Counted from the stretch's first letter, positions 34,485 through 54,814 are shown. The stretch is 64,000 nt of DNA from an uncultured Muribaculaceae bacterium (GCA_964425325.1 CAYRLX010000004.1:4577-68576); one strand, 5' to 3'. The notes: generated by a model from the sequence alone, not told the origin. Made by a program: numbers and translations.

Positions 34485-35069
34485 TTATTGACTAGCAACT
34501 AATTTTACTTTTATTTCAATTTGCGTAACACCTGGATTACTATTTTTAAAATCATAAGCTTTCCTTCCCCAATAAGTATCCTCTTCATCATCGCCAGACT
34601 CATAAGGCCATACTACTTTAACTTTAAAATTAGAAGTCTGCCCAATTTGTACAACCGGATTATCTTGAGTAAAAGTAGTTTTAAAAGGATAGTTATTAGA
34701 AAGTATTTCCTCGAGTTCTAAAGTAGTATATTCATCCTTAGTAAAAGTTTCATCAAAAATTTTAACAGAAATAATTTCATAATTTATATTTGCTGCAACC
34801 TCACCAGAATTTTTAATCTCAACCTTCTCATTAAAATCAGGCATCCCGGGATATAAAGAATAAACATTAAAAACAACTTCGCTTTCTAAATCAGTTCCAT
34901 CCTTAGCAAAAGTAATTTTCCAAGATTTAACTCCAGCATTTATCGTATTAGAAACCTTATTACTATAAATAAACCAAGCAAAAGCATTACCAATTAAAGC
35001 TAATACAAGTAAAAATAAAGTTCTCCTTCTAACGCCATTTTTAAATTTCTTATACTTACTCTCCTTCAT
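34485..35069 (-). CDS. small secreted beta-rich protein, TasA/camelysin-like (SipW-type signal)
   Basis: Signal anchor LFLLVLALIGNAFAWFIYSN, then VKSWKITF as in paralogues 43034-43603 and 55740-56330. RBS GAGGAA. Confidence 0.6.
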   Translation of the reverse strand: MKESKYKKFKNGVRRRTLFLLVLALIGNAFAWFIYSNKVSNTINAGVKSWKITFAKDGTDLESEVVFNVYSLYPGMPDFNEKVEIKNSGEVAANINYEIISVKIFDETFTKDEYTTLELEEILSNNYPFKTTFTQDNPVVQIGQTSNFKVKVVWPYESGDDEEDTYWGRKAYDFKNSNPGVTQIEIKVKLVASQ

Positions 35070-35619
35070 CTAATTCCTCTTCTTTAGACTTTATAAAATC
35101 AATTATTTCTAAAAAAATAAGAAAAGCAATTGGAACAAAAATTAAGAAATAAAAACCAAAAGAATTATTTAAAATACCACTTAAAAAACTTAAAACAACA
35201 GTCTTATACTTGACAACACCATACACTTGATCTTGACTAACTATAGGATCTTCAAGCGGATTATTAATACCCTTAGTAGTATACTCATATACCCCATTTT
35301 TATTTTCAATATTAATAACCCTGTGGGTAATTATTTTATCTTTATAACTATCAGCTTTACCCATATATACTAAGTCATCACCAATTTTAATCTTATCAAA
35401 ATCCTTACTTCCAACTAAAATAACATCCATTATCTTATACTCAGGAAGCATACTGCCTGATGCTATAGTAAAAAGCCTGTAATTACCCAAAGCAATTTTA
35501 TTATTAAAAACTCTTTGAACTAAGATTAAAATAACAACCATAATAGCAATTATCCAAACTACTATTCTAATTAAACTAACAATAAATTTTAAAACCTTAT
35601 TATCCATTATTTTTTTCAT
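35056..35619 (-). CDS. sipW: signal peptidase I, SipW/archaeal-ER type (catalytic)
   Basis: Catalytic Ser box IASGSMLPEY, His box IITHRVI, TKGINNPLED, and a C-terminal TM helix. Confidence 0.8.
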   Translation of the reverse strand: MKKIMDNKVLKFIVSLIRIVVWIIAIMVVILILVQRVFNNKIALGNYRLFTIASGSMLPEYKIMDVILVGSKDFDKIKIGDDLVYMGKADSYKDKIITHRVINIENKNGVYEYTTKGINNPLEDPIVSQDQVYGVVKYKTVVLSFLSGILNNSFGFYFLIFVPIAFLIFLEIIDFIKSKEEELDEGE

Positions 35620-36721
35620 TTAAACCCACCTTCAAATCATGCTCTTTAGCCATATAAAGTTCAATAGCCTCTTTATACTTCTTCTCAATCACACTAGTGT
35701 CTACAACTTTTTGATATTTAACCTTTATATACTCATCACCAATTAATTTCATAACATCCTCTAAAGATAAATTATCCTTAATACTTAATAGCTGATTTAC
35801 AGTATTAGAAGCAACCTGATTTTTCAAATCATCCTCAAGTTCCTCACTCTTTTCACTAATAGAAGATTTCATAATCAAATAATCAAGTAAAAATGAATCA
35901 TTCATCATCTTCTGCAAAACCCCATTATCCTCATAACCATTATTTTTCTTCTCACGGGTGCTACTCGCTTCCATATGACTTTGCATGTAATTCCACAAAT
36001 CTAAAGCATACTGAAAATTGACATTTTTTAAAATCAAATTAGTTTTTTTAATAGGAGACACAACAGGAGCAACATGAAGACGAGCAATATCTTTGTATAC
36101 ACTAGTGCTGCATAGATCTGCAATTTTTTGTTCAAGTTTCTCTATTCTATCAAATATAGAATTCTCTTTTTTGGAACTTTCCTTCAAATCACTCTTAAGC
36201 TGCAAAGCAATCTCAATATTTTCCTTGCCTATTTTGGATTTACCTCTATACTCCAAAGAAAGCTGTTCATTTTTCGAAGTATCAGATAAATTTTCAGTCT
36301 TCTTTCTTTCAATATACATCTTCATATTATTTATCAAAGTAAATATAAACCTATTCTCATAAGTATTAAAACTCTCTTCCTTGTTTATATTTAAAATTTT
36401 AGAAGGCTTAACCTCTTCAGTTTTAGGATCATACTTTTGAATCAAATTAGTATTACGAGATAAATGTTTAATACTATCGACAGTAATACGTCTAGCAAGC
36501 TCAATTTTAACAAGTTCTTCTTCATTGACAATAAACCTATTAGGATTTCTTAAAATATTATCGATATACCTTACAGTCTCCTCCATCTTAACAAGCCACT
36601 GATCATCATAGACAGTATTGTCCTTCTTTTGATTAACATTTAAAGTAGACCTTACAGAATCATTAAATTCCTTCTTTTTAATATCATCTAAATTATTATA
36701 AAGATTTAAAACATTATTCAC
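35600..36721 (-). CDS. McrC-N-terminal-like (DUF2357-like) partner protein without a nuclease domain
   Basis: Immediately downstream of the McrB-like gene. The segment SFNTYENRFIFTLINNM resembles the McrC/DUF2357 N-terminal region. No PD-(D/E)xK motif found. GTG start with RBS AGGTGA. Confidence 0.4.
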   Translation of the reverse strand: MNNVLNLYNNLDDIKKKEFNDSVRSTLNVNQKKDNTVYDDQWLVKMEETVRYIDNILRNPNRFIVNEEELVKIELARRITVDSIKHLSRNTNLIQKYDPKTEEVKPSKILNINKEESFNTYENRFIFTLINNMKMYIERKKTENLSDTSKNEQLSLEYRGKSKIGKENIEIALQLKSDLKESSKKENSIFDRIEKLEQKIADLCSTSVYKDIARLHVAPVVSPIKKTNLILKNVNFQYALDLWNYMQSHMEASSTREKKNNGYEDNGVLQKMMNDSFLLDYLIMKSSISEKSEELEDDLKNQVASNTVNQLLSIKDNLSLEDVMKLIGDEYIKVKYQKVVDTSVIEKKYKEAIELYMAKEHDLKVGLNEKNNG

Positions 36722-36731
36722 GATTTATCAC

Positions 36732-38252
36732 CTACGTTAACTTCTTAAGACGAAGCAAATACTCCTCGCATTCTTTCATTTCGCCTTTTCCAAAAGTAGT
36801 ATCTAAAAACTCAATAAAACCATCTATTTCATCTCTAATATAAGATATATTAAGTTGTTCAAACTTTCTTAAAATCTTTCGTGCAATAAAATAATCAACT
36901 CCCGCAACCTCAGTTCCACCGCAAGCAACATATACAGGTACAAACTTACGCATATGAGCAACAATACGGTTACCAAAAGCTATCCTAAAATGTTTAATAA
37001 CATAATTATCCATCTCTTCTATTTTATTTAAAGTATCCTCACTAACCTGATTCTCATTAATAGCCGTATTAAATAAATTACGTAAATAAGAATAATTAAT
37101 GTCTTGAGCAGGAGTATCAATAGGTTCAAAAACTTCACCCTTATCATTAATGTCTATTGGCATCGCACGGTCATAAACCTTATCAGTAACCATAAATGTA
37201 GAATCATCGTTATTGATAGTACCTATATACCAAACATTAGGGCTAATCTTAAGTTTACCATCAGAAAGACGCTCTGGATCACTACTCCAACCACTAGATA
37301 CAAGTTCGACAAGCCACTCATCTTCATTAGGCATCTCCAAAATAGAAAGCATCTCCGCAAAATAATACTCAACCCTGGCAATATTCATCTCATCCAAAAT
37401 TACCGTGAAAACATCATCAGTATAACCAGCTTCATAAATAGTCTTAAGAACATCAGTTTCATTAAACTTCTTAGTAAATTCGTTAAAATAACCAAAAAGC
37501 TCAGTACGATCACGCCAAGAAGGCTGAACAGAAGCTACGCAAGAGTCATGTTTTAAAAACTTACCCCAAGCATAAGCAAGTGAAGTCTTACCAGTACCAG
37601 AAATACCCTGCAAGATAATAAGCTTAGTAGAAGCTAAAGCAGAAATAAAGATTCTAATCATCTCACTTTTATAATAAAGCTTTAACTTACTAGCCGCAAA
37701 ATTTCTAAATAGCTCGACAAGCTCCTCCAAAGTAAAATTGTTGTTATAATTCTTAATAGTATAACTAGCAAACTCCTCGTCTATATTAGCAAGTTTAGCA
37801 AACCTTCTTCCGTCATTATTATCATCTTTCTTCTCTTCGCTTACCTCTTCAGTATCACTCTCTCCAGGCTTAAGACCCAAATGAGATACTTTCATAGCTA
37901 AAATATCTTCTTTCTCTTTAACCAAAGTAGATACCTCGTCATTTAAAGTAGCAACCTCATTTAAAAGTTCTTCCTGTTCAACTAAAGTTTTCCTAAATCT
38001 AATATACTTATTTACTAAAAATATAACGAGAAATAAAAGACCACCCACAACTAAAAGCATTAAAATAACAGCTAAAACTACAAAAATCCATTCAGGCCCA
38101 TTAAAATCTTCCTTATAAAAATTAAGTATCTTTAAATAGCTTCTAAAATCAAAAATTTGAAAAAAAGCACTAATAAATCCTTTTATAATCATATAAAAGC
38201 CACCAAAGAACTGACCTAAAAACTCATAGATAAATCTTAAAAAAGTATCCAT
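36732..38252 (-). CDS. membrane-anchored McrB-like AAA+ (AAA_5) NTPase
   Basis: Two N-terminal TM helices and a coiled coil. Walker A GISGTGKTS, then VILDEMNIARVEYYFAEMLSILE and WYIGTINNDDST as in McrB-family GTPases. Confidence 0.7.
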   Translation of the reverse strand: MDTFLRFIYEFLGQFFGGFYMIIKGFISAFFQIFDFRSYLKILNFYKEDFNGPEWIFVVLAVILMLLVVGGLLFLVIFLVNKYIRFRKTLVEQEELLNEVATLNDEVSTLVKEKEDILAMKVSHLGLKPGESDTEEVSEEKKDDNNDGRRFAKLANIDEEFASYTIKNYNNNFTLEELVELFRNFAASKLKLYYKSEMIRIFISALASTKLIILQGISGTGKTSLAYAWGKFLKHDSCVASVQPSWRDRTELFGYFNEFTKKFNETDVLKTIYEAGYTDDVFTVILDEMNIARVEYYFAEMLSILEMPNEDEWLVELVSSGWSSDPERLSDGKLKISPNVWYIGTINNDDSTFMVTDKVYDRAMPIDINDKGEVFEPIDTPAQDINYSYLRNLFNTAINENQVSEDTLNKIEEMDNYVIKHFRIAFGNRIVAHMRKFVPVYVACGGTEVAGVDYFIARKILRKFEQLNISYIRDEIDGFIEFLDTTFGKGEMKECEEYLLRLKKLT

Positions 38253-38263
38253 TAAATCACCTA

Positions 38264-39223
38264 CTAACTTGGTATATATATAATCTCATATTGAGATGAA
38301 TCATAAAGTTTTCTATCAGAAGTAATAATAAAAGCAAATATTTTAAATAACTTATTATTCTCCTCGCTAAATTCAAAATTACTATCAATCTCCAGCGCAA
38401 TTTTAAATCCTCTTCTAGTAAGATCATATACCCAATCATGATTAGAAATATAATCACTATATTTTATTTTTAAAACTAATTTTTCCTTTATAATATCATT
38501 ATCGATAGTTTTAAGAAGTCTTTGATTCTTCTTAGGTTTACTAACCAAAGAAAAGACATAATCAAGTATATAAACATTATTAAAATTTCCTTTAATAACA
38601 TCCTCTAAAGCACGAACACAAGCTAAAGAATAAGATACAAATAACTTCTGTTCACTAATAGCCTTATTACTAAAAACTTTCTCAATCGCATATTCACTAT
38701 ATAGTTTAGAAAATTTCAAATTATGTTCTAAAATGCAGTAAAAAATATTATCTTTAACCTTTAAATACTTCATAGAAAAATTATTATCAGAAAAACTATC
38801 TAAAAATTTCTTTTTAGTAATTAAATCCTCTTCAAGCATATTATAAAGCTTAGATTCAAAATTACTATCGCTAAGTTTAAGCTCTATTAACCTAAACATC
38901 TTAATTTCACTTATCAATTTTCTAACAGAATCACATTCAAAAGCCCCATCAAAATAAAGCATATATTTAAACATTTTAAACATATATCTTGCTTTATCCT
39001 TAAACTTTTCATCAATATTTAAAACAGATTTTTTTAAATAATACACGATATTCTCTTCTAATTTTAGAGAAACACTAGGATATAAATTATAATACCTAGT
39101 ATTTATATAAGCATTAATCATATCATCATAAATATTTTGATCAAAATAATGATCCAAAATCAACATCAAATATTTCTTGATAGAATCTTGAGAAAAACTA
39201 ATGTATTCACTAGCAATATTCAT
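38264..39223 (-). CDS. hypothetical cytoplasmic protein
   Basis: 319-aa ORF with RBS AGGAG. No secure motif; the C-terminus (RRGFKIALEIDSNF) only vaguely resembles EAL. Confidence 0.55.
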   Translation of the reverse strand: MNIASEYISFSQDSIKKYLMLILDHYFDQNIYDDMINAYINTRYYNLYPSVSLKLEENIVYYLKKSVLNIDEKFKDKARYMFKMFKYMLYFDGAFECDSVRKLISEIKMFRLIELKLSDSNFESKLYNMLEEDLITKKKFLDSFSDNNFSMKYLKVKDNIFYCILEHNLKFSKLYSEYAIEKVFSNKAISEQKLFVSYSLACVRALEDVIKGNFNNVYILDYVFSLVSKPKKNQRLLKTIDNDIIKEKLVLKIKYSDYISNHDWVYDLTRRGFKIALEIDSNFEFSEENNKLFKIFAFIITSDRKLYDSSQYEIIYIPS

Positions 39224-39234
39224 CTAACCAACTC

Positions 39235-40152
39235 CTAATAATCATAAGTAACATTAATTACCGAAGAATTACTATAATCTATACTTTTATCATTTTTATA
39301 AAATTTAATAACATCACTAATACTAGAATCCATATCAAAAGTAAATTTTTTAACATAATTAAACCCATCTATCACTTTAGTTTCGATATTATAAGCCTTT
39401 AAATAATCAGTAGCAGTATTATCTATCTTAATAATATCAGGATCAAAACTTACAGTAATAACAGCAGAAGCACATTTCTTTTTATCCTCATCACTTAAAG
39501 ATAGATAAGTATCCACACTAATAGAATCATGAGAAGAATAACTTCCAAAAGCTTCTTTTACAAAATAAGAATCTAAAGTATTAGTTACTTTCAAATTTAA
39601 ATAATCACTTCCACTACTGTCAGATATCTCATGACCAAGTCCATATTTACCAACCACAAACGTAAAAGACGCAGAAAGTTCTTTAACATATGGTTTTAAA
39701 GACTTTGCAATAATCTTAACAGTAGTACTATCTCCATCATTAAATATAGCATTAGGTGTCATAGTAAACACAAAACTGTCAGTATTACTAGCTGATGAAA
39801 TAACCCCATCATCTTTACTAGTAGAACATATTAAATTACTAGGACACTCATAACTTATTTCATATTCTATATCAGAAGAACTTTTAAGCTTATCGTTTTT
39901 AAAACTATTTAAATTCACAACAATATCATATGGATCAACACCATTCCAATAGTCAAGAGAATATCTAGCATTATCCCTTTTTAATTTATCACTTTCAAAA
40001 TAAAAACTTTGACTCATAAAATATAAATCTAGAATTTTATTATATACGTACCTTCCAAGACTGACAGAAATAGTAATTAAAAATAAACTAATACAAAAGA
40101 TAACTATATAAATATAAACTCTAGGTATTCTTTTAAATTTTTTTAATTTCAT
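39235..40152 (-). CDS. membrane-anchored extracellular protein
   Basis: N-terminal anchor VYIYIVIFCISLFLITISVSLGRYVY, then a beta-rich S/T/D/N-rich ectodomain. ATGA overlap with the upstream gene. Confidence 0.6.
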   Translation of the reverse strand: MKLKKFKRIPRVYIYIVIFCISLFLITISVSLGRYVYNKILDLYFMSQSFYFESDKLKRDNARYSLDYWNGVDPYDIVVNLNSFKNDKLKSSSDIEYEISYECPSNLICSTSKDDGVISSASNTDSFVFTMTPNAIFNDGDSTTVKIIAKSLKPYVKELSASFTFVVGKYGLGHEISDSSGSDYLNLKVTNTLDSYFVKEAFGSYSSHDSISVDTYLSLSDEDKKKCASAVITVSFDPDIIKIDNTATDYLKAYNIETKVIDGFNYVKKFTFDMDSSISDVIKFYKNDKSIDYSNSSVINVTYDY

Positions 40153-40616
40153 GCTTTTTTATAATTTCTAAGCAAAGTAATAAAATAAAAAGTAATAGGA
40201 AATATAACAGATAATAAGTAACCAATCTTACTAGTAAAAATATTATATAAATAGCCTATAAAAGGAATAACTAAAGCATCATCTACTTTTCCAATAATAT
40301 AATCTATAGATACATATTCGTTGTCTCTAATAACAAAAGTATCATTATTAAGTACTTTCATAACCCTTTCACTATTTACAAAATTCTTACTATTTTTAGT
40401 ATCGTAAAATAAAATTTCGTCACCTATTTTAACATCGCCCTTTTTTAAAATAATTAAACTGCCCTTCTTATAATTTAATAAATCTTCTTTTAATCCAATT
40501 ATTGTCTTACCAAATAAAACACTATTAGAAAACCTATTAAAAGTAAACAATAAAACAGTATTTATAATTACAAAAAAGACAAAGATACCAATTAAAATAT
40601 ACTTTCCTACTCTCAA
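40149..40616 (-). CDS. SipW-like pseudo-peptidase (catalytic Ser and His absent)
   Basis: Same N-TM, beta-core, C-TM layout and GD...GDEILFYD / IGKV blocks as SipW. No SxSMxP box; THRV is replaced by ERVMKV. TTG start. Confidence 0.55.
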   Translation of the reverse strand: MRVGKYILIGIFVFFVIINTVLLFTFNRFSNSVLFGKTIIGLKEDLLNYKKGSLIILKKGDVKIGDEILFYDTKNSKNFVNSERVMKVLNNDTFVIRDNEYVSIDYIIGKVDDALVIPFIGYLYNIFTSKIGYLLSVIFPITFYFITLLRNYKKA

Positions 40617-40739: not shown

Positions 40740-40751
40740 AATATACCCTAA

Positions 40752-41828
40752 TTATGGTTCAGGAGTTGGCGTACTAGATGAAGTATCAACAGGTTTTATA
40801 CTAAATTGTAAGTTAAAAGAAATTTGTCCACCAGAAGCATTATTCTCACAGTCAACGTCTTGTCCTTCAATCCACATATAAATTCTAATTTTAGTAATAC
40901 CAGCAGCTAAACCATCAGTTTCAGTTAAAGTTTGACTGTCAGTATAACCTTCTTTAGTTTTAATATCAGGATTAACATCAGTAAAATAAGTTTCATTTAA
41001 AGTTTGAGTAGCTTGCTCACGTTTAATTTTAGCAGACGCTGGAACAACAGCCTTAACACCAGAATAAGGAACCCAAGCATTATTACTACCAACATTTAAT
41101 GTAGTAATACCATAAGGGCTTATCGCATTGGCAACACCGTCTCCAGTATGAACATCATAGTTTGGCTCCCACATTTTAACAGTTGAACTAGTTCCTTCAT
41201 TTAAAGCTTGTACATTGGCAATTGAATCAGAAGTAGTAGTATGACCTAAAGTAACAAAAGCTATTCTAGCAGCATTTTTAATACCAGTGTCATCATTTCT
41301 AAATACAACTGTAGAATTTGGAGTCATATATAAAGTTTCATCTTGTTCATTCTTTAAGAAAATATCAAAAGCAACAAACTTACCTTGTGACTCAGCCCCA
41401 GAACTATTAGTCTCTTCAGATTTAGAAGCACTTAATATAAAGTTACCAGTAGTCTCATCTGCAAGAACTTTACCTAAGAACATCTCCATTTTACCATTCG
41501 CATCAACAACACCAGCAGTTGAAACAGGCTCTAAAGTTTCAGGTAATTGGTTAACTGCAGCAGAATAATTACCAATCGCACCAGTAATATCAGTATTAGT
41601 TATTACTGATTTCCAGTTAGTCGCATCAGTAGATATCTGAATACCACTAGATGTTGATACATTAACATCGATTGGACTTATAGTAACCTTTTCGTTAGCC
41701 GTAAACCATGCATAAGATGCAGTTCCTAAAAAGATACCAGTTGCAATCAATAAAAATAAAATTAAAAGTAATCTTCTCTCCTTCTGTTTTTGTTTCTCTT
41801 TCTTACTCATTTTTTTTGACTTAGCCAT
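40752..41828 (-). CDS. secreted TasA-like protein, candidate major filament subunit
   Basis: ATG at 41828 with a perfect RBS AGGAGG. Signal anchor ending GTASYAWFTAN. Paralogue of 53093-54070 (shared NQLP, WEPNYDVHT, IYMWIEGQDVDCENNAS). Has its own promoter and terminator. Confidence 0.65.
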   Translation of the reverse strand: MAKSKKMSKKEKQKQKERRLLLILFLLIATGIFLGTASYAWFTANEKVTISPIDVNVSTSSGIQISTDATNWKSVITNTDITGAIGNYSAAVNQLPETLEPVSTAGVVDANGKMEMFLGKVLADETTGNFILSASKSEETNSSGAESQGKFVAFDIFLKNEQDETLYMTPNSTVVFRNDDTGIKNAARIAFVTLGHTTTSDSIANVQALNEGTSSTVKMWEPNYDVHTGDGVANAISPYGITTLNVGSNNAWVPYSGVKAVVPASAKIKREQATQTLNETYFTDVNPDIKTKEGYTDSQTLTETDGLAAGITKIRIYMWIEGQDVDCENNASGGQISFNLQFSIKPVDTSSSTPTPEP

Positions 41829-41899: not shown

Positions 41900-42454
41900 T
41901 TACACTTGCTTTGCATCGACGCTAATTTCAATAGTATCAATTAAGTCCTGATACATCTCGTCATTATACATTTGAGGAAAATTAACCACTAAAGTATACT
42001 TATCCGTTCTAGAAACATCATGAGTAAAACTACCAGCTAAAGATTCATACTTAAAAAAATACATACCATTACTATCTTGAATAATTTCCCTATTACCAAT
42101 TATATTCTCGTTACCATCATCCTTATATAAACTATAAGTAACAGGAATATTAGTAGTAGTTATAACCTCAAAAGTATAATCTAAATTAACCTCACTTACC
42201 TTGTCATCTTTAAAATTAGATACCTCGATATTATAAGTATAATCCTGACCATCAGGAGTAATTTCTCCAATTTTAATAGACTCAGTCTGTTTTTTAGGAT
42301 CAATTACATAAAAAGCAATCTTACTGCCAATAACTCCATTTGAATCACTATGAAATAATGAATAAGTAACTTTTATAAATATTAAACTAATAAATATACC
42401 TAAAACAACCAAAACAATACGAAAAGATAATTTAAACCTATACTTATCGAACAT
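41900..42454 (-). CDS. small secreted beta-rich protein (SipW-type signal)
   Basis: ATG at 42454 (MFDKYRF) with RBS AAGGATGG. Anchor IVLVVLGIFISLIFIKVTYSLFHSDSN. Overlaps the sipW stop by 11 nt. Confidence 0.6.
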   Translation of the reverse strand: MFDKYRFKLSFRIVLVVLGIFISLIFIKVTYSLFHSDSNGVIGSKIAFYVIDPKKQTESIKIGEITPDGQDYTYNIEVSNFKDDKVSEVNLDYTFEVITTTNIPVTYSLYKDDGNENIIGNREIIQDSNGMYFFKYESLAGSFTHDVSRTDKYTLVVNFPQMYNDEMYQDLIDTIEISVDAKQV

Positions 42455-46100: not shown

Positions 46101-49100
46101 CTATTTAATAATTACATATTGAATAACATCACCGATAAAAGTATCACCATCATAAAGACTAAATACAAATTTATAAGTACCACTAACAAGCAAAGATTTT
46201 AAATAAAGCGCCTTATTCATACCATCCACTGGATCATCTATAAACATATATTCACCCTCACCAGTAGAAGTCAAATTATTAGTAACATAATCAGTCAAAT
46301 TAACCTTTTCATAATCGTAAGAATAAACATCATCATATAGTCTTCTGTATAAAGAAACCCTAATATTAGGACTTGCAAAACTAGAATTATATCCTAAAGT
46401 AAAGTTTAAAATATTATTATCATTTTTGGTATAACCAGTAGTTTTATCAATTATCATCTCTTCATCAGTAAGTTTAACCTTAAGGCCATAAGAACTATTT
46501 ATCATTGTAAAAGGAAGTTCTATAGAATCTTGCGCTAAAGATCCATAATAAATTCCATCAGGAGAAGTAAACGACTCTATCTTAAGTACATAACTACCAC
46601 TAGCTAAATTCAAATTAGTAGTGTCTATTTTTATCCTCTTAAAAATATTCGCAACCTTATCAGTTAAAGCAATTCTAACACTACCATCCATACGCGGATA
46701 ATAATAAGTATCATCAACCTTATAAGCAAGACCAAGTAAACTACTGTTGTTAAGCTGATTTCCACTAGAGTCATAAATAGTAATCTTTACACCAGGCTTT
46801 TTATCGAAATGACTAGTGTCAACTACAGGAAGACTGCCGACAATAGGCTGAGTAAAATTACCAGTTAAATCTACATTAGCAATATCACCTTTATAAATCG
46901 TAGAGTCGGAAAACTCTCCTTCGATATCCATTTTCGCATCACTATTATCATATAAATTATAAGTTAAAGCCGATCTTTGAATACCAAGCAAGTTAATCAA
47001 AGTATTCTCTCTGTCCCTCAGCTCTACAAATAAAGTATTTCCAAGTTTATTACCCTCTATTTCAGTATCTTCAAAATTGACTATAAAGATAAACTCCTCA
47101 TTCACCGTTTTAGAATCATTAAAGTAATATTTAGAAGCATTTTTAGATTCATCAAAAGTATTATTTAAACTAGTAGATCCCATCTTAATAAAATTAGAAA
47201 ACTTATAAGCACACTCACCATAAGTATTAAAATCACGGCAAGCCTCATTATTACCATTATCATCTACTACATAATAATATTTCTGATTATCTATTAAATC
47301 AAGCATAGTTATCTTAGTCTTAGCTGGAAACATATAATTAGAAACTAAAGCATGATTATAAGTACTCTTATAATAAGAATTTTCAGAATTCATAAATAAA
47401 GAATAATAGGCACTTAAAGTAGATTTAGTATTAATATTTGTTGGTAAAGAAGCAAACATCTCATGCTTCTCCCCGCTCGTCATAGACCCTTCATACTTAT
47501 CTTCACTAAATAAGGCAGAACTTAAAGTGACATTAATATTCACACGTCCTATCCTATCGTTAAGTTCATCGATAGGAGTAACCGTTTGAAGAGAAATAAC
47601 AACAGTTCCAATCTCACGAGATATAGAAATATTTTTAGAGTGATAAAGATAAAATAATAAACTAGGAGCAGATTCAGAGTTCTCAGAAGTATAACTTCTA
47701 GTTCCATAAATAGGATTACTACTGTTAGTTAAAAACTGAGTAGAACCAGAATTTACAAAACCAGTATTAGACGGTTCAAAAGCAAGACCCATTTTAGTAT
47801 CAGCTGTTCCATCAAAATTAATTCTAGGTATATCACTAGATTTGACAAGCTCAAAACCATCCTCTATATCATCGTAATTAAAACCTAAAATTTGAAAAGT
47901 AGTATTAGCCTCATTGTTAAAAATCAAAGGAAGCTCTGTAGTACCTAAAGTAGAATACTTAGAAGCCGCTAAACTAATATCATAAGTTTTAACCTGCTCA
48001 CCAATTGACCATCTATAATAAGGGCCATCCTCAGGAGAAGGTATAACGTACTTAACTTTAATCTTTCCCTCATTTTCCTCATCAGGATAATTACTGTAAA
48101 AACCATCCTTAGAGATATTATGATTACTCTTATGAGCCCCCATAACATAACTACCTAAAGTAAAAGCATATAAATCAGTTGGAGCATCACTACCATTAGT
48201 ATATTTATTATCATATAATGCAGTTATTATCTTGCCGTTTCTATCTAACTTATACATTCCAAAGAAAGTCATACCACTTACATTTCCATATGCAGTTGCA
48301 TATTCATTAGTCGCAATATTTAAATTCTTTCCATTAAACATATAAACCCTATTGTTTACATTTCTAGTATAACTTCCAGAATCAGTAATATTTACAGTTG
48401 CCTTAGTGACATTATCACCATCTATTTTAGCACTGTAAAACTCCTCGAGTAAATTCGCACCAGTATCTAAAAATAAAGTACTATCGTTAGCTAAAACAAG
48501 TTTTTTAATACGGCTTAAAGAAAATTCCACAGTAGAAAATTCATTAGTTCTATCAGTAGCTCCCTCAAGTTTAATCGAAGAATTTTTTATAGTAAGTTCG
48601 TCAGTTCTTTGAATAGATACATTTTCCTTATAATCATTAAACGTACCATAATTACTAATATTAATCTTACTATAACCAGAAGTAGAAGAAGCGTTACCAC
48701 TACCAAAGATAGAACCTAAAATATCAAAATTATTGTATCCATCTCCATCTATATTAACATCTATTCCTTTAGTAACACCGATAAAACTAAAGTCATACTT
48801 AGGTGAACCACTCGCATTAGCTTCACCACCACCAAATACAGTCCCATATATCTTAATATCAGATTTTTGATCTTGATTATACCCGATATTCAAAATAGAA
48901 TTACCATATAAAACAGCAGTATTAGCTCCTCCGTAAACATTACCATGAATAACACCACCAGCAATATTTACATGACTAATAGAAGAATTAGTAGATTCAG
49001 TTCCAGTATTAGCTGCATTTCCACCACCAAAGACATGAGAAGTTATATCAGAAGTTCCAAGGATTTTAATATTAGTGTTTCCATGGACAACCGCAGTATT

Positions 49101-52100
49101 ACCATTACCACCAGCATACGCACTTCCGCCTATATTAGAATCAGTAATTTTAACAGTAGTATTTCCAAGAATTTCTCCTAAATTACCACCACCAAATAAA
49201 TCACCAGTAATAGAAGAAGACTTAAAATCTATAATAGTATTAAAATTAACAGCAGCATTATTTCCACCACCAAAGAAATTATTATTAATATGCACACCAT
49301 TTACCTTGACATTTGTATAATCAGTCTCTGCATTGTTGCCACCACCGTAAATATTATCATATACCCCGCCAGTAATATCAATATTAGCAGTCTTAGTTTT
49401 ACCACCATCATTATTTCCACCATAAATAGATCCTACAGAAAGATTATTTGAACTATTAGATTTAACATTACTAACTAAAACCTCACCAGCTGAATTACTA
49501 CCACCATATACTGAAGTAGCAGATCCACTATTTAAGCTAACATTTGTAGTACTTACACCAGCACTATTACCGCCTCCAAATAAAGAAGTAACAGCTCCTC
49601 CATTTAAAGTAATATTAGAAGTAACAGTAGAAGCTTTATTACCACCACCATAAGCTGTTCCTATAGAACCTCTATTTAAAAATACATTAGAAGTAGTAGT
49701 CTCACCACCATCATTGTTACCGCCATACACTAAAGGCACATTAGAATTAACATATACATAAGACTCTTTTACAGTTCCATCTTGATTAGAGCCCCCATAC
49801 ACACCTGTAGTAATAGTTCCTCCGTTTATATTAACTAAAGACCTAGTTGAAACATTCGCGCTTTGTCCTCCGCCAAATATAGTTGAAACTGTTCCGCCAC
49901 TAACATTTACATTAGTGTTAACCGTATCAGCTTCCTTTCCACCACCGTATATTACCCCAGCAGTTCCAGAAGAGACATTGACAGTTGTATTATTAACAGA
50001 TCCAGCAGCATTATTTCCACCATAAATACAGTTAGTAGTTCCACCTAAAACATTAACAGTTACCTCTCCAAGTGGAGTTCCGTTCGCATTATTACCACCA
50101 TATACATTATTCGTGTTAGCACCATTTATGTTAACAGTAATATCTCCGGCTACAAGTGGCTCATGATCACTATCACCCTTACCGCCACCAAAGACATTAT
50201 TTAATGTACCATTATTTATATTGACGGTAGTTTTATAATTAGACTTACTAGTAGTTAAAGAAGCACTATTTACAGTACCAAAAGCACTACCACCATATAT
50301 ATCACCAGTAATTACTAAAGATGAATTATTTTCACCAGCATTAACAGTAACATCACGCTCTATAAAAGTATTCTGACCATATCCACCACCAAAAACATTC
50401 GCTGATTTACCACTTAATAAATTAATATTACTAGAGCCGTATACTACACCTTTACTATTACTACCACCATAAATAGAATTCTTAACCTCACCACCATCTA
50501 AAATAATATTGATAGTAGATACTACCTCACCTTCCTTACCAGAACCGCTATTATTACCAGAACCAAACACAGACCCATTAACAGTTCCACCAAGAATCTT
50601 TATATTAGTTTGACTAGTTGATGTCGCACTGTACCCAACAGTACCAAAGTTACCACTACCATAAACATCACCTTTTATAGTAGCTCCATCATTTATAACA
50701 ATATTAGAATTTTTAACAGAACCAATAGTTTCATAAGTAGAATTACCATTTCCAGCACCAAACACATTACCAGAAACAACACCAAATAAATTGTTATTAT
50801 CGCTGCCTATTATAGAGTCATTGCCTATAGTCGCGCTTCCTCCAATATAAACATAACTGTCACCAGTTAAAGTACCATCAGTACTCTCACCATCGACACC
50901 ATTACTACCACCGATAACACCATAATTCACTCTTCCACCAGTAATCTGAATAATCCTATTTCCATAAGTTGTAGATGTACCAGCTCCGCCAGTAACTAAA
51001 TCAATTTCTCCTCCCTTAACATACATCGTACATGCATTTAAAGAAGCCTTACTATTATCAGTACTTGGAGCCCCAATTAAATTATAAATGTATCCGCCTT
51101 CCATAATAAACTCTCTAGGTGCATAGTGAGAGCCACCATATCTTGCCCCAACATAAATACCAGTAGTTAAATCATACTTCCCAGTCCCAAAACTTCCACT
51201 TTTTACAGTAGTAGTCAAAACAGGATTATAAGTGTCATTAGAAGAGTGCAGATACCCGCTCCAGCTTGCAGCCGAAGAATAATAAAGTTCAAGCTCATTG
51301 TTTACCCCTCTAGCCCTGTCATAATCATTTCCATAAGTAAGATAAGCTTCAGCATATAAAGTAGGCATATTTCTAGTTGTAGTAGTCGCTCCATAAGTTC
51401 CTGTCGCAGAATTATAAAAACCACTTTCTACTTCAAACTTATACCTTCTAGGATCAGAAGAAGAACCAACAGTAGTACTTCTAGTTACATTTAAAGCACC
51501 TTGAACTGAATTAAAATTGGCATTATCCCCACTTCTTTTAATTCCTCTTCCAATTTTAACATTATTGTAATTAGCATAAAAAACCCCATCCCCATCATTA
51601 CTAATAGAAGGAGCAGTATTAGAGTTTCCATACTCACTATTGATTGTTAAATTTTCTATTCGAAGATCAGTATATGCAATAACACTTGTATTAGATACAT
51701 TCCAAGTAGGATTATAATCACGTCCATTATAAATACCAGTTAAAGTAAAAGGCCTAGTAAATGTAGTTCCCCATGAAGAACTCATATTACCATTCATAAC
51801 AACTATATTAGTATCTCTTGTACCCAAATAATAATAAGTCTCATTAGAATCATATAAATTGGGGTTAGAAGATGAATCATAATACTGAACAAGTTCATAT
51901 AAAGAGCACGTATTACTCGTGCAAGTTCCACTTTGTAAATCTCCAGCATTATTATAATATCCCTCTATACTAGCTCCTCTTCGAATACTTACTCGTCTAA
52001 AATAACCAGCCATATTCATATTAGAATCAAATAAATCATCTTCTTTAGTACCTATAATAGTAGGAGATAAATTCACTAAATACATTCGATTATTATAAAA

Positions 52101-53078
52101 CCTGTAATAAGTCTCATTAGGACTATAAGTATCATTAGAATCAAGTAAATAATATACCGTACAATCATTAGTATACTCACCCTCACTAGGCCACATTCCA
52201 ACATTAGGAGCTGCGCAGCTATAAGGATTATTCTCACCATGATAAGTACCATTTCCTTCATAGCAATTAGTACATGTCCCATATTCAGTTTCAATATCGG
52301 GATTCCACCAATAACCACTAACAGTAGAAACAGTAGTAATAGTCTCAGCTCTATAATAACCAGCCACATCAGGATTTTGATATAAATTAGTATCGACAGT
52401 TATTTGATGCATCGCATTAGTATCTAAACTACTTAAAGCATTAGAAAAACTATTATTAGAATTAACATAAGCTACTTTGCCCTTAGTCCATCTAGCATAT
52501 AAATTAATCTCTATTTTATTAGGTTTTCCATTACTATAAGTTACAGGTACCTTTAAAAATCTTCTATAATAAACACTATCATAACTTATACTAGAACCAT
52601 TATAATCACAAACCCATCCATTAAAAACCAAATCGTTAGGATGATTAGTAAAAGGATTATCGATAAGCTCAATATTTATATAACCATTCTCTACCGGATA
52701 AAATTTATAATAGACAAATTTTTTCTGAAGTTCTTCAGTTTTCAAAGAAACATACCCAGTATATTTGCCTTCCTTATCAGTTCCATTATAATTTAAAGTA
52801 ACCTCTACTAAATTAGAATCATTATAAATATTTTTATCATCTAAACTAGGAGTAGTCATATTAGAACTATAAGTATAATTTTGACCAGTGTAATAATAAT
52901 AATCTTTCTCAAAATCATTTAAATAAACAGTATCACCACTGATACCCTGAGATACCGTATTCGCATCGCCAAAAGTTTTTAAACTTCCATAAGTAAAAGC
53001 AAAAGAAGTGATAGAAATTATAGCAGCCAAAAAAACTAATAAAGCCCTATTTTTGTTCCTTATTATTTTATTAACCAC
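46101..53078 (-). CDS. giant secreted beta-solenoid protein (2325 aa), candidate adhesin or fibre component
   Basis: GTG start after a perfect RBS AAGGAGGTGAT. Signal anchor ALLVFLAAIISITSFAFTYGS. Residues about 680-1460 are roughly 20-aa repeats of the form x-V-x-V/I-x-G-G-x-V/I-x-x-V/I-Y/F-G-G-G/S-N. No LPXTG sorting signal. Confidence 0.8.
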   Translation of the reverse strand: MVNKIIRNKNRALLVFLAAIISITSFAFTYGSLKTFGDANTVSQGISGDTVYLNDFEKDYYYYTGQNYTYSSNMTTPSLDDKNIYNDSNLVEVTLNYNGTDKEGKYTGYVSLKTEELQKKFVYYKFYPVENGYINIELIDNPFTNHPNDLVFNGWVCDYNGSSISYDSVYYRRFLKVPVTYSNGKPNKIEINLYARWTKGKVAYVNSNNSFSNALSSLDTNAMHQITVDTNLYQNPDVAGYYRAETITTVSTVSGYWWNPDIETEYGTCTNCYEGNGTYHGENNPYSCAAPNVGMWPSEGEYTNDCTVYYLLDSNDTYSPNETYYRFYNNRMYLVNLSPTIIGTKEDDLFDSNMNMAGYFRRVSIRRGASIEGYYNNAGDLQSGTCTSNTCSLYELVQYYDSSSNPNLYDSNETYYYLGTRDTNIVVMNGNMSSSWGTTFTRPFTLTGIYNGRDYNPTWNVSNTSVIAYTDLRIENLTINSEYGNSNTAPSISNDGDGVFYANYNNVKIGRGIKRSGDNANFNSVQGALNVTRSTTVGSSSDPRRYKFEVESGFYNSATGTYGATTTTRNMPTLYAEAYLTYGNDYDRARGVNNELELYYSSAASWSGYLHSSNDTYNPVLTTTVKSGSFGTGKYDLTTGIYVGARYGGSHYAPREFIMEGGYIYNLIGAPSTDNSKASLNACTMYVKGGEIDLVTGGAGTSTTYGNRIIQITGGRVNYGVIGGSNGVDGESTDGTLTGDSYVYIGGSATIGNDSIIGSDNNNLFGVVSGNVFGAGNGNSTYETIGSVKNSNIVINDGATIKGDVYGSGNFGTVGYSATSTSQTNIKILGGTVNGSVFGSGNNSGSGKEGEVVSTINIILDGGEVKNSIYGGSNSKGVVYGSSNINLLSGKSANVFGGGYGQNTFIERDVTVNAGENNSSLVITGDIYGGSAFGTVNSASLTTSKSNYKTTVNINNGTLNNVFGGGKGDSDHEPLVAGDITVNINGANTNNVYGGNNANGTPLGEVTVNVLGGTTNCIYGGNNAAGSVNNTTVNVSSGTAGVIYGGGKEADTVNTNVNVSGGTVSTIFGGGQSANVSTRSLVNINGGTITTGVYGGSNQDGTVKESYVYVNSNVPLVYGGNNDGGETTTSNVFLNRGSIGTAYGGGNKASTVTSNITLNGGAVTSLFGGGNSAGVSTTNVSLNSGSATSVYGGSNSAGEVLVSNVKSNSSNNLSVGSIYGGNNDGGKTKTANIDITGGVYDNIYGGGNNAETDYTNVKVNGVHINNNFFGGGNNAAVNFNTIIDFKSSSITGDLFGGGNLGEILGNTTVKITDSNIGGSAYAGGNGNTAVVHGNTNIKILGTSDITSHVFGGGNAANTGTESTNSSISHVNIAGGVIHGNVYGGANTAVLYGNSILNIGYNQDQKSDIKIYGTVFGGGEANASGSPKYDFSFIGVTKGIDVNIDGDGYNNFDILGSIFGSGNASSTSGYSKINISNYGTFNDYKENVSIQRTDELTIKNSSIKLEGATDRTNEFSTVEFSLSRIKKLVLANDSTLFLDTGANLLEEFYSAKIDGDNVTKATVNITDSGSYTRNVNNRVYMFNGKNLNIATNEYATAYGNVSGMTFFGMYKLDRNGKIITALYDNKYTNGSDAPTDLYAFTLGSYVMGAHKSNHNISKDGFYSNYPDEENEGKIKVKYVIPSPEDGPYYRWSIGEQVKTYDISLAASKYSTLGTTELPLIFNNEANTTFQILGFNYDDIEDGFELVKSSDIPRINFDGTADTKMGLAFEPSNTGFVNSGSTQFLTNSSNPIYGTRSYTSENSESAPSLLFYLYHSKNISISREIGTVVISLQTVTPIDELNDRIGRVNINVTLSSALFSEDKYEGSMTSGEKHEMFASLPTNINTKSTLSAYYSLFMNSENSYYKSTYNHALVSNYMFPAKTKITMLDLIDNQKYYYVVDDNGNNEACRDFNTYGECAYKFSNFIKMGSTSLNNTFDESKNASKYYFNDSKTVNEEFIFIVNFEDTEIEGNKLGNTLFVELRDRENTLINLLGIQRSALTYNLYDNSDAKMDIEGEFSDSTIYKGDIANVDLTGNFTQPIVGSLPVVDTSHFDKKPGVKITIYDSSGNQLNNSSLLGLAYKVDDTYYYPRMDGSVRIALTDKVANIFKRIKIDTTNLNLASGSYVLKIESFTSPDGIYYGSLAQDSIELPFTMINSSYGLKVKLTDEEMIIDKTTGYTKNDNNILNFTLGYNSSFASPNIRVSLYRRLYDDVYSYDYEKVNLTDYVTNNLTSTGEGEYMFIDDPVDGMNKALYLKSLLVSGTYKFVFSLYDGDTFIGDVIQYVIIK

Positions 53079-53092
53079 TATATATCACCTCC

Positions 53093-54070
53093 TTAAGAAG
53101 GATTAATAGTAAATTTTAAATCAAAAGTAATATCTCCATACGATGCATTATCCTCACAATCTACATCTTGTCCTTCAATCCACATATAAATTCTCATTTT
53201 TGTCACGCTAGGCTGTAAATCAGCAATTTTTTGATTAGCTCCACCATTTTTAGGAGTTTCAATACCAATACCTACATTCTTAAATAAACCAGGATATGTA
53301 CCAGCATTAGCACTTGAAATAGGAATATTAAGATTAGAAGGAATTACTGCAGTAACCCCATCATAACTAAGTCTAGAAGCCCCATTTAAAGATGTAGAAA
53401 TCCCATAAACATCTCTTGCATGAGAAACTCCATATTCTGTATGCACATCATAATTTGGTTCCCAAATAACCACATCAAGTCCATTATTTAAGCTTTGTGA
53501 AATACTAGGATTATCCGCACTACTACCCTCTGTAATAAAAGCTATTCTAGTCGCATTTTCAATACCAGAATTAGCATCCCCAGTATACTCTACCTTAGAA
53601 CTACCATCTAAATAAAGTTCCTTAGAACTATTAACCCTGAAGAAAACATCAAAAGCGATAAAATTACCATCACTTTCTTCACCAAAACCCTCAGTTTCCA
53701 TAGACCTGTCAGCTACCAATATAAAGTTATCTACACTATTAGTCGCATTACCGACAAACAACTCAAGCTTTCCATCACTAACATTTCCACCAGAAGATAC
53801 AGGATTCATCCTATAAGGAAGTTGATTAACACTCCCAGAATACTTTTCTCTTGCACTCATAATATCCGAAACTGTAACAACCTGTTTCCAATCTATCGCA
53901 TTAGTACTAACTTCAAGTCCACCATCAGTTTGAACATGAACATTAAGTGAATCAATAGAAACCATTCTATTCGCACTAAACCAAGCAAAAGTAGTAGTCA
54001 TTAAAAGAAGAGAACTAAAAAAAAGGGGAATTAATAATTTTCGTCTTCTATTTTGTTTTTCTTTCTTCAA
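53093..54070 (-). CDS. secreted TasA-like protein, paralogue of 40752-41828
   Basis: TTG start 8 nt after GGAGG. Signal ending TTTFAWFSAN. C-terminal MRIYMWIEGQDVDCEDNAS. Confidence 0.65.
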   Translation of the reverse strand: MKKEKQNRRRKLLIPLFFSSLLLMTTTFAWFSANRMVSIDSLNVHVQTDGGLEVSTNAIDWKQVVTVSDIMSAREKYSGSVNQLPYRMNPVSSGGNVSDGKLELFVGNATNSVDNFILVADRSMETEGFGEESDGNFIAFDVFFRVNSSKELYLDGSSKVEYTGDANSGIENATRIAFITEGSSADNPSISQSLNNGLDVVIWEPNYDVHTEYGVSHARDVYGISTSLNGASRLSYDGVTAVIPSNLNIPISSANAGTYPGLFKNVGIGIETPKNGGANQKIADLQPSVTKMRIYMWIEGQDVDCEDNASYGDITFDLKFTINPS

Positions 54071-54758
54071 AGTGTTCCTCCATTATTTCCATTTTTAATT
54101 TTAACTCTCCCCCTATTATCGCATCCACACAATCAGGATCATCCCCTTCTAAATAAATAACTACAGTAAATCTATCACTTTCCATAGGTTTTAGACCTTT
54201 TCTTTGTTTTAAAACAGTATACTTATTTGAATGAAAAGGTGTTGTATCAGGCTCAGGACTATCAGTAAGCTCATTTTTTTTAGCATAAACAGTCTTTACA
54301 CCATTTTCATATATCGCAATTCGAACAGCCTCGTCCACATTTTTAATAACATCAAGCATTTTAATAGAATACCAATAATTAATAACTTGATCACTAGTAT
54401 TACCGACATAAAAAGAATAAGCAATATAATTATCACCATTATGACTCCCATCTTTCTCACTATCGATGTTTGCTGGAAGCCAATCACCAGAAATGTTATC
54501 CATAAAATCAAGTTCTTTCGCATAAAGCTTATTTTGATATCTAATATCGCCTTTATTTTCGTAAAGTACAATCCCACTTTTTAAAGAAAAATTAGGATCC
54601 AAAGTAACAGTAAAATGACCACCCTTATAAACAATAGATAAGATAAAAAAAGATAAAATAAGAACTAAAAAAGAAACAAAAACAACTATTTTAGTAATCT
54701 TAAGTCTCTTTTTTCTCTTCTCTAATTTAGAAGCCGTAACTTTAACTGTTCCTGCCAT
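54048..54758 (-). CDS. membrane-anchored extracellular protein, distant member of the same family
   Basis: TM anchor IVVFVSFLVLILSFFILSIVY. The C-terminal VVIYLEGDDPDCVDAIIGGELKLKMEI matches the EGxDxDC block of the 325/358-aa proteins. First gene of the operon. Confidence 0.6.
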   Translation of the reverse strand: MAGTVKVTASKLEKRKKRLKITKIVVFVSFLVLILSFFILSIVYKGGHFTVTLDPNFSLKSGIVLYENKGDIRYQNKLYAKELDFMDNISGDWLPANIDSEKDGSHNGDNYIAYSFYVGNTSDQVINYWYSIKMLDVIKNVDEAVRIAIYENGVKTVYAKKNELTDSPEPDTTPFHSNKYTVLKQRKGLKPMESDRFTVVIYLEGDDPDCVDAIIGGELKLKMEIMEEHFEERKTK

Positions 54759-54784
54759 AATCACACATCCCTATTCTTATATAA

Positions 54785-54814
54785 ATTTTATCATATTTTG
54801 TCATATAATGTAAA
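54785..54814 (-). promoter_or_regulatory. candidate promoter of the island operon
   Basis: Minus strand TTTACA (54809-54814), 18 nt, TGaTAAAAT (-10 at 54785-54790). Confidence 0.45.

Follow-up and report, generated by a model that had tools for sequence, protein, structure and literature searches.

What does a bacterium build with a gene cluster that encodes active and inactive signal peptidases, about ten exported proteins, a giant and a GTPase related to a restriction enzyme? This question is raised by a locus in a 64,000-nucleotide stretch of DNA from an uncultured Muribaculaceae bacterium (GCA_964425325.1, CAYRLX010000004.1:4577-68576), which is referred to as the window and whose coordinates are used throughout. 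An earlier note, made from the sequence alone, had read the locus as a heteropolymeric TasA-like fibre or adhesin apparatus. What stands of this proposal is a coherent, co-inherited export system centred on SipW-type signal peptidases, whereas the link to TasA is weak. With a probability of roughly 55%, we favour the view that the locus encodes a chromosomal, vertically inherited apparatus of the CoCoPALM type, which builds a multi-subunit surface filament or adhesin and whose assembly is coupled to a GTPase. This view builds on what can be observed directly in the genes, namely the gene set, its co-inheritance, the identity of the peptidases and their active or inactive status, the subfamily of the GTPase and the conservation of the export junctions.

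A co-inherited locus made of two modules

Seventeen closely packed open reading frames (ORFs) on the minus strand, g01 to g17 in the order of transcription, were called between positions 34485 and 54764, and their lengths, 236, 325, 2325, 38, 499, 275, 189, 191, 184, 358, 155, 305, 319, 506, 373, 187 and 194 amino acids (aa), agree with those listed in the earlier note. Genes called independently on metagenome contigs from this organism, which encode proteins identical to those of the window, have the same lengths. The cluster bounds of 34485-54814 that had been proposed do enclose all 17 genes, but two further conserved genes lie just outside: g00 (55740-56330, plus strand), which codes for a 196-aa exported small beta subunit and is divergent from g01, and, between g00 and g01, a gene for a 98-aa single-pass membrane protein with an acidic tail (55297-55593, minus strand). 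Counting these two, the cluster comprises 19 genes and has a size of ~22 kb. It is not the single operon that had been suggested; instead, the locus consists of two modules, module A with the divergent g00 and g01-g10, and module B with g11-g17. Module A ends after g10 in an intrinsic-terminator-like hairpin with a 10-bp stem and a T run (40739-40714, minus strand), as had been noted before, and a promoter-like sequence, TTGACA-17-TATGGT with a TG element, is found ahead of g11 at 40653-40625.

The gene set is not restricted to the window. One genome per GTDB species was scanned, which gave 521 matching stretches, and the 80 that were fetched (L012-L091) are the basis of all locus counts given here. 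When the 17 proteins were searched iteratively against every ORF in these loci, the whole set was recovered, so that gene-neighbourhood mining, which had been named as a way to check the proposal, finds the same genes in conserved order in 80 loci. Homologues of g01 are present in 74 of them, of g03 in 72 (median length 2477 aa), of g00 in 66, where it is encoded on the opposite strand, of g05 in 65, of g04 in 51, of g13 in 49 and of g12 in 48. The 98-aa protein has homologues in 18 loci, and in all eight for which coordinates were checked the gene is located just upstream of g01. Module B precedes module A in 48 loci, the order is A-B, as in the window, in four, and module B is inverted in one (L088). 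No sufficiently complete locus was found without either module.

It could be argued that a SipW/exported-protein operon and a degenerate McrBC pair have come to lie next to each other by chance, and a terminator and a promoter-like site do divide the locus into two transcription units between g10 and g11, which would be in line with this. However, the GTPase pair of module B is interleaved with genes for two exported subunits and for one active and one inactive SipW, and the two modules are adjacent in 53 of 53 testable loci, the other 27 being too incomplete to judge, despite the permutation and inversion of modules. Because of these synteny data, we consider chance adjacency to be largely excluded and its remaining probability close to negligible.

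The 80 loci derive from metagenome-assembled genomes (MAGs) titled uncultured Bacilli, Tenericutes, Mycoplasmatota, Erysipelotrichaceae and 'Clostridium sp. CAG:451/609/628/914', which we take, from GTDB naming, to belong to RF39-type orders. These uncultured orders are for the most part predicted to have a cell wall and may be able to sporulate (PMC10868615). Some contigs carrying the cluster (L012, L021, L025, L026, L031, L037, L045 and L078) are found in MAGs titled Muribaculaceae, Sphaerochaetaceae, Bacteroidaceae and Paludibacteraceae, and further such titles are Oribacterium, Lachnospiraceae and Vescimonas. Due to the low-GC, Bacilli-type gene content, these divergent labels probably reflect bin contamination or mislabelling.

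The locus had also been described as horizontally mobile, and this could not be upheld. The cluster is conserved in hundreds of related species, and with a G+C content of 0.25-0.35 and a negative GC skew it is no different from its flanks. A megablast search of the locus against plasmid and phage collections gave no match and a collection of 2.9 million viral contigs gave one, and we therefore rejected a plasmid or prophage origin. Lineage-wide conservation, together with the absence from collections of mobile elements, indicates that the locus is a lineage-wide chromosomal trait and not a mobile island. The match in the viral collection (L102, IMGVR_UViG_3300045988_179395) encodes a relative of g02 with 44% identity and may be a misclassified bacterial contig.

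With regard to transcription signals, promoter-like sites in this DNA show no excess over shuffled sequence. This also bears on the promoter that had been placed upstream of g01 at 54785-54814: a site with 10/12 matches is indeed present there, but a better one, with 11/12 matches, lies at 55195-55167 and such sites are no commoner than in shuffled sequence. Adjoining the latter on its downstream side, we noticed a 30-aa hydrophobic ORF, MKKRVYVIKLLRYICIILSLLTLLVLVIKK (55010-55102, minus strand), behind a strong GGAAGGAGG ribosome-binding site and followed by a hairpin with a 7-bp stem (54984-55010), which might serve as a leader peptide or be a small membrane component. That the region between g00 and g01 might hold an invertible promoter or undergo phase variation was considered and discarded, as just low-complexity AT-rich inverted repeats are found there.

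Signal peptidases and exported proteins

Pfam and NCBIfam scans of the 17 proteins led to two identifications only, SipW and DUF2357. Using the model for archaeal/SipW-type signal peptidase I (TIGR02228, cutoff 51.85 bits), g08 (42444-43019) and g16 (35056-35619) scored 75.5 and 78.6 bits, respectively. Both are about 190 aa long and thus SipW-sized, have hydrophobic segments at both ends and retain the Ser, His and Asp positions, with the motifs SM-P, THRV and (E)D conserved in 56 family sequences. More precisely, g08 carries the SM-P, THRV and D motifs, and in g16 the Ser and His are conserved and an invariant ED is found further on. The scores of g06 (43613-44440), which has an acidic C-terminal tail, and g11 (40149-40616), the first gene of module B, were 18.2 and 20.4 bits and hence below the cutoff, and a family alignment revealed neither the conserved Ser nor the His. 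The g06/g11 family profile nevertheless matches the SipW family with an hhalign probability of 98.9%, and the two proteins are homologous to each other (phmmer, 9e-18). As g06 and g11 are homologous to SipW, yet score under the cutoff and lack Ser and His, we conclude that they are pseudo-peptidases. The earlier count of four SipW-fold proteins, two of them catalytic, is therefore confirmed by the TIGR02228 scores, the hhalign comparison and the active-site residues. Each module contains one catalytic SipW and one inactive paralogue, g08 and g06 in module A and g16 and g11 in module B, and we thus have a bacterial case of a pairing of catalytic and pseudo-catalytic signal peptidases that is reminiscent of the eukaryotic signal peptidase complex.

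Which proteins might these peptidases process? Alignments of the individual exported families showed that a short motif at the end of the hydrophobic segment is kept within each of them. In g02 (53093-54070; TFAWFSANR) and g10 (40752-41828), the junction reads T-[FY]-A-W-F-[ST]-A-N-R, in g17 (34485-35069) F-A-W-F-I-Y-S, which is nearly invariant in 52 sequences, and in g00 E-T-Y-A-K-Y, which is invariant. The corresponding motifs are S-F-G-[LV]-F-E-S in g07 (43034-43603), [TS]-[YF]-S-x-F-x-S in g09 (41900-42454; TYSLFHS) and a conserved G-R-Y-[VI]-Y-N in g12 (39235-40152). Overall, the conserved junction of the exported proteins can be described as T-[FY]-A-[WK]-[FY], and it resembles the G-T-[WY]-A-[AY]-F of TasA/CalY, as seen in a verified TasA sequence and eight TasA-family genes of Bacillus plasmids. 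SipW-cognate signals had been ascribed to all exported proteins; the junction is indeed conserved family by family, but g01 has none and the model for such signals, TIGR04088, did not reach its cutoff of 19 bits, with g10 scoring 13.4 bits. Sub-threshold matches to this model were seen in 4 of 38 members of the g02/g10 family, and it is the sole NCBIfam match that recurs.

Based on profile comparisons with hhalign, most of the short exported proteins appear to form a single small-subunit superfamily. g00, a paralogue of g07, falls into the g07 family with a probability of 100%, g09 joins it with 95% over 133 columns and g17 with 87% over 137 columns, and g12, the N-terminal part of which is weakly related (71% to g09), perhaps also belongs here. 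g12 had been described as an anchored ectoprotein; its conserved G-R-Y-[VI]-Y-N resembles the A-K-Y of g00, and it may therefore be cleaved instead of anchored. A search with the small-subunit family gave 2763 clusters, and among the best 150 listed, ten of which were without a Pfam domain, no bridge to a named family was found. The predicted beta-sandwich proteins g02 and g10 are close paralogues (phmmer, 6e-79), and the g02 family has 878 database homologues, none of them named and none with a Pfam match. The membrane-anchored protein g01 (54048-54758) shares with the g02/g10 family the 37 C-terminal columns around an E-G-x-D-x-D-C strand (90.6%; EGDDPDC in g01 itself) and nothing beyond. 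g01 retains a basic cytoplasmic N-terminus and a transmembrane (TM) helix, which is followed by a conserved YKGGxFTxTLDPNF and not by a SipW-type junction, suggesting that it is an uncleaved membrane anchor.

An acidic loop after a conserved Trp is common to the C-terminal regions of otherwise dissimilar exported families, namely those of g00, g07, g17, g02, g10 and g01. It has the form W-x-E-G-Q-D-V-D-C-E in g02/g10 (residues 297-306 of g02, including the motif EGQDVDCE), W-P-Y-E-S-G-x-D-x-x-D-T in g17 and W-x-D...N...D in g00/g07. By analogy with the sites reported for the CanA and AbpX filaments, this loop could bind calcium.

The exported giant g03 (46101-53078) had been called a beta-solenoid. 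Residues ~720 to 1460 do contain about 30 repeats that are rich in G/N and recur every 23-32 residues or so, but these repeats are the sole support for such a fold, and searches of Pfam, NCBIfam and the PDB with g03 were without a match. A subunit-like domain inside g03 was also considered and rejected, since the similarity seen with hhalign was weak and confined to the signal-peptide region.

The membrane-tethered GTPase and the CoCoPALM class

The last four genes of module B include the pair that had been read as a McrB-like AAA+ protein and a McrC-N-like partner, and this assignment was confirmed. g14 (36732-38252) aligns to E. coli McrB (PDB 6hz4, E value 0.003), and g15 (35600-36721) matches PF09823 (DUF2357), the N-terminal domain of McrC, with 51.3 bits (E value 1.2e-13, cutoff 23.3); in 51-52 of 80 loci, g15 is encoded directly downstream of g14. 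The invariant I-N-N-D-D of g14 aligns with N-H-D-E and N-M-D-E of ATPases encoded on Deinococcus and B. mycoides plasmids and with N-T-A-D of E. coli McrB, and by this alignment the g14 motif is an 'NxD followed by D/E' variant, which places the protein in the NxD branch of McrB-like GTPases. The N-terminal 130 residues of g14, which precede the AAA+ domain, are conserved in architecture, with hydrophobic helices at about 12-34 and 55-80, predicted to form a TM hairpin, and a heptad-like stretch at about 90-121. Residues 56-130 gave a sub-threshold match to FtsL_Actino (E value 0.001, 18.9 bits against a cutoff of 55). In its architecture this anchor fits an FtsB-like combination of TM helix and coiled coil, the sub-threshold match being the one signal of homology.

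g14 is also the most constrained part of the locus. It is 75-80% identical across loci, whereas all other components, g15 included, are 20-60% identical, and it has at least 8000 database homologues; relative to the rest of the locus this constraint is unusually strong, and the protein is conserved like a housekeeping enzyme. For g15, no domain besides DUF2357 and no PD-(D/E)xK nuclease was detected in Pfam, NCBIfam, PADLOC and profile-against-PDB searches; by eye, a short heptad-like stretch can be seen around residues 185-205. Three cytoplasmic proteins might act together with this pair. g04 (45973-46089) is a helical peptide that was called by independent gene callers, and g05 (44484-45983) is helical and of unassigned family, with no match in Pfam and nothing meaningful from its family profile against the PDB. 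g13 (38264-39223) is likewise unassigned, as Pfam, PADLOC and the PDB gave no match with either the single sequence or the profile. The possibility that g13 is a degenerate EAL domain, suggested by a 'GYxFAIxLDD' stretch, was dismissed since no EAL match was found in 21 members. More generally, comparisons with the PDB of g02 and g03 as single sequences and of the g07/g00, g17, g05, g13 and g15 profiles returned nothing informative.

Do g14 and g15 form a restriction system? In g15 there is no nuclease, and the N-terminus of g14 is a membrane anchor with a coiled coil and not a nucleic-acid-binding domain, which sets them apart from McrBC. A linkage of this kind has been given a name: Bell et al. 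(eLife 2024) termed NxD McrB GTPases with an FtsB-like anchor that are linked to signal-peptidase genes CoCoPALM, devoted one paragraph to them and deferred the analysis to a later paper (PMC11090510). Our literature search found no later CoCoPALM paper, and the text supplements of PMC11090510 are silent on CoCoPALM. The locus described here encodes an NxD(D) GTPase with an adjoining DUF2357 gene and, in the same module, the signal-peptidase genes g11 and g16, and is thus a member of this named, uncharacterised class. The statement in the earlier note that the composition of the system is not described was too strong, because the linkage between GTPase and signal peptidase already carries the name CoCoPALM, the parts and function being unpublished.

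The ancestry of the GTPase could also point to a conflict or defence system, in which a McrBC-derived GTPase senses infection and the exported proteins serve as effectors or as a surface barrier that can be induced. The match of g14 to the PADLOC candidate PDC-M26A (8.7e-35) is far stronger than that to McrB, and a literature search for 'PDC-M26' found no paper. In addition, AAA ATPases encoded on plasmids of cyanobacteria, Deinococcus and betaproteobacteria share 35-40% identity with the GTPase domain of g14, and the Deinococcus ATPase (39% identity) adjoins a DUF2357 gene. g14 furthermore belongs to the NxD branch that has been described for CoCoNuT systems (PMC11090510), its relatives, which are predicted to sense infection. 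Nevertheless, we regard such a role as quite improbable: no nuclease or effector domain was found and g15 is without PD-(D/E)xK, the DNA-binding N-domain of McrB is replaced by a membrane anchor in g14, the locus is lineage-wide and highly conserved, unlike patchy defence islands, and it was not found in the phage and plasmid collections searched.

A model for assembly and its relation to known systems

We propose that the exported proteins cross the membrane through Sec and that g08 and g16 would cleave the subunits between T-[FY]-A and [WK]-[FY], with the cut falling behind the junction's small residue. g06 and g11 are probably non-catalytic partners of these peptidases or chaperones or holders of the subunits. 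The small subunits g00, g07, g09, g17 and probably g12 are predicted to adopt a jelly-roll-like fold that is nearest to the donor-strand-exchange subunits CanA, TasA and AbpA. Outside the cell, they could polymerise by strand complementation on a base formed by g01, perhaps together with g02/g10, and g03 might be the distal adhesin. On the cytoplasmic side, g14, tethered to the membrane by an FtsB/FtsL-like helix and coiled coil, would act with g15, g13, g05 and g04 to couple GTP hydrolysis to assembly, gating or anchoring. This coupling, for which there is no precedent, is the weakest step of the model. The cluster logic does have one, as TasA-superfamily loci with a signal peptidase I (SPase I), an accessory protein, minor subunits and a tip protein have been described (10.64898/2026.01.04.697558).

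How well is a TasA-like filament supported? An AlphaFold 2 model of g07 was of moderate confidence (pLDDT, the predicted local distance difference test score, 70; predicted template modelling score, pTM, 0.60), and its best Foldseek matches were the Pyrodictium cannulae protein CanA (9h8b, 3e-3), the CanA-like tube Hyper2 (9bab, 5e-3) and the TasA fibre (8aur, 6e-3), with the AbpA bundling pilus (7ueg, 1e-2) and further CanA entries (7uii, 1e-2, and 9hdi) also among the matches. TasA-superfamily filaments account for six of the top 22 matches in a search of 350,542 chains, four of them at a probability of 0.97-0.99. These filament matches had E values of 0.003-0.03, none of them at or below 0.001, probabilities of 0.77-0.99 and TM scores of 0.28-0.43. 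Six such entries among 22 are unlikely to be due to chance, and we regard them as a resemblance between a model and solved folds, not as a demonstration. For sequence comparisons, a TasA query, confirmed to be 100% identical to PDB 8aur, was compared with three family profiles; a profile of nine TasA/CalY sequences, assembled from Bacillus plasmid genes, was compared with all exported families. Homology to TasA at the sequence level was not found, as every profile comparison was non-significant, and the family profiles did not recover TasA from the PDB. It should be kept in mind that Tafi and some other members of the TasA superfamily are tied to the rest solely by sensitive HHpred comparison (10.64898/2026.01.04.697558). 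The description as TasA-like thus holds weakly for the small-subunit family, on the basis of a model, and is not supported for g02/g10. This also summarises the structure and hidden Markov model comparisons that had been proposed as checks: g07 finds CanA, TasA and AbpA at E values of 0.003-0.01, but g02 matches nothing solved, and the SipW model is passed by g08 and g16, but Peptidase_M73 and the SipW-cognate model are not. In the g02 model (pLDDT 83, pTM 0.83), the first strand after the signal peptide has a pLDDT of 56-68 compared with about 90 in the core. This is the one hint of an N-terminal donor strand, and the g07 model does not show such a contrast.

Several points weigh against a GTPase-coupled filament. 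The fold matches of g07 are weak, come from a model with a pLDDT of 70 and are mixed with other beta-sandwich pilins; for the g02/g10 fold, the best PDB match had an E value of 0.024 and a TM score below 0.2, and no TasA-superfamily entry was among the 50 matches listed. Peptidase_M73 was matched by none of the window proteins or 71 family members, and the profiles of the small-subunit and exported families reached hhalign probabilities of at most 20% against TasA or the TasA/CalY profile. The role assigned to the GTPase is without precedent, because the papers on TasA-superfamily filaments consulted here mention no NTPase; to our knowledge, TasA fibres assemble without one. The nearest relatives of the GTPase domain of g14 are defence-type systems. 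Lastly, the host is uncultured and known solely from metagenome assemblies.

Some of this evidence would also fit a non-filamentous surface coat or matrix, that is, a two-dimensional lattice or gel, whose deposition is served by SipW processing and the GTPase. g02 and g10 have folds without a match to a filament subunit, members of the TasA superfamily of the AbpX type form lattices and hydrogels (10.64898/2026.01.04.697558), and the conserved acidic W-x-E-G-x-D...D loops could bind calcium as in AbpX and CanA. On the other hand, the model of the small subunit is nearest to filament subunits, and many minor paralogues together with one giant resemble an arrangement of shaft, minor subunits and tip. 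We therefore consider a coat unlikely, albeit less so than a defence system, and prefer a filament or adhesin. In its most specific form, which we put forward tentatively and with clear doubts, a membrane-tethered McrBC-derived GTPase, stripped of its nuclease, has been turned into the motor or gate of a donor-strand-exchange filament that is tipped by a giant beta-helix adhesin. If true, TasA-superfamily-like filaments would here have their first machine for assembly or anchoring that depends on NTP, and uncultured, small-genome gut Bacilli would possess an attachment organelle that defines their lineage. The locus also brings together two fields that have so far been apart, that of restriction GTPases of the McrBC type and that of extracellular filaments of the SipW/TasA type. 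A circular chromosome of 1.26 Mb carries one related locus (L030), and a locus of ~22 kb takes up about 1.7% of a genome of this size. It is kept across hundreds of species without a cultured representative. The size and conservation of the locus and its housekeeping-like GTPase argue for a central role in the attachment of these gut organisms to their surroundings or in their interaction with them.

The genes around the cluster are of an ordinary chromosomal kind and are not conserved beyond the nearest relatives. One flank contains tsaE/tsaB/rimI/tsaD, an ABC transporter, a large serine recombinase and a carbamate-kinase-like gene, and the other an M23 peptidase, a PcrA/UvrD helicase, a YhcG-like gene and LigA. 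The 525-aa recombinase (57398-58975, plus strand) is located two genes from the cluster; a homologue abuts g00 in L019 (6568-8166), and others lie ~2 kb from g00 in L020 (4636-6231) and ~10 kb beyond g10 in L091 (19559-20974). It might be tied to the permutation and inversion of the modules, flanking repeats not having been found. Directly downstream of g17, a 155-aa ORF and a very acidic 52-aa ORF (33615-34447, minus strand) recur on contigs of the same organism. As homologues are found in 0 of 80 related loci, they are probably outside the system. Further away, at 27928-30265, a gene for a 394-aa protein without a Pfam match and an opposite-strand YhcG/DUF1016 nuclease-like gene are located between the pcrA-like gene and ligA, which are usually adjacent in Bacillota.

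The host lineage and these surroundings raise the possibility that the apparatus belongs to the surface of the spore, as a coat layer or appendage, and not to the vegetative cell. In PDB entry 5of1, TasA goes by the name 'spore coat-associated protein N', and a homologue on a Bacillus plasmid bears the annotation of a putative spore coat-associated protein. Sporulation is predicted for RF39-type Bacilli (PMC10868615), and a large serine recombinase is encoded nearby. Against this, neither sporulation genes nor sporulation promoters that could be recognised as such were found in the locus, and the placement of the host in a sporulating lineage is itself an inference. The odds of a spore structure thus appear small, similar to those of a defence system, and the filament or adhesin of a chromosomal CoCoPALM-type locus remains our preferred explanation.

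How does the system compare with those already known? McrBC and CoCoNuT share with it an AAA+ GTPase with Walker A and B motifs, the N-x-D signature and a DUF2357 partner encoded immediately downstream. In contrast to them, there is no DNA- or RNA-binding N-domain and no PD-(D/E)xK or HEPN nuclease here, and the GTPase is membrane-tethered and encoded inside an export and surface locus. tapA-sipW-tasA of B. subtilis and calY/sipW of B. cereus likewise place a SipW-type peptidase beside beta-rich proteins that are exported and have a junction of the T-[FWY]-A-[AY]-F type, and the TasA fibre 8aur is among the best fold matches of the small subunits. However, tapA-sipW-tasA comprises three genes and the locus described here 19, with two active and two inactive peptidases, a giant, a GTPase module and no TapA, and homology of its exported families to TasA/CalY was not found at the profile level.

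Closer in organisation are the AbpX/AbpA/CanA/Tafi loci, in which genes for major and minor subunits are likewise accompanied by those for a tip protein, for a dedicated SPase I and for a non-catalytic accessory of SPase. The accessory protein of the TasA superfamily has been likened to the eukaryotic signal peptidase complex (10.64898/2026.01.04.697558). In AbpX-type loci it is a DUF5305 protein and the peptidase has ten TM helices, whereas here an inactive SipW paralogue and a short, ~190-aa peptidase of SipW size are found. SLH or LPXTG anchors and cyclic di-GMP or two-component regulators are not seen here, and the McrBC-derived GTPase is extra. As had been stated before, there are no sortase, type IV pilus or flagellar components in the family scans of the 17 proteins; sortase families were unmatched, and LPXTG with a C-terminal hydrophobic tail was not seen when the translations were read by eye, no pattern search having been made. 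A functional analogy for g06 and g11 is offered by SipA (LepA) of S. pyogenes, a dead signal-peptidase homologue in a pilus locus. SipA is of the bacterial LepB type and acts with sortase-linked pili, whereas g06 and g11 are of the SipW type, that of archaea and the endoplasmic reticulum, and no sortase is present here. Although inactive, this signal-peptidase-like protein is reported to be essential for pilus polymerisation in S. pyogenes (PMC4049620).

The closest relative is CoCoPALM itself, with which the locus shares a McrB-like GTPase of the NxD branch with a putative TM and coiled-coil region, an adjacent DUF2357 homologue and the linkage to signal-peptidase genes, which in CoCoPALM are presumed to act in pilus assembly (PMC11090510). 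The CoCoPALM paragraph is silent on pairs of active and inactive SipW proteins, on the subunit families and their fold, on the giant, on the two modules and on the host lineage. To it, we add a component list, evidence on the fold, the two-module layout and the host distribution, which together make the system experimentally approachable.

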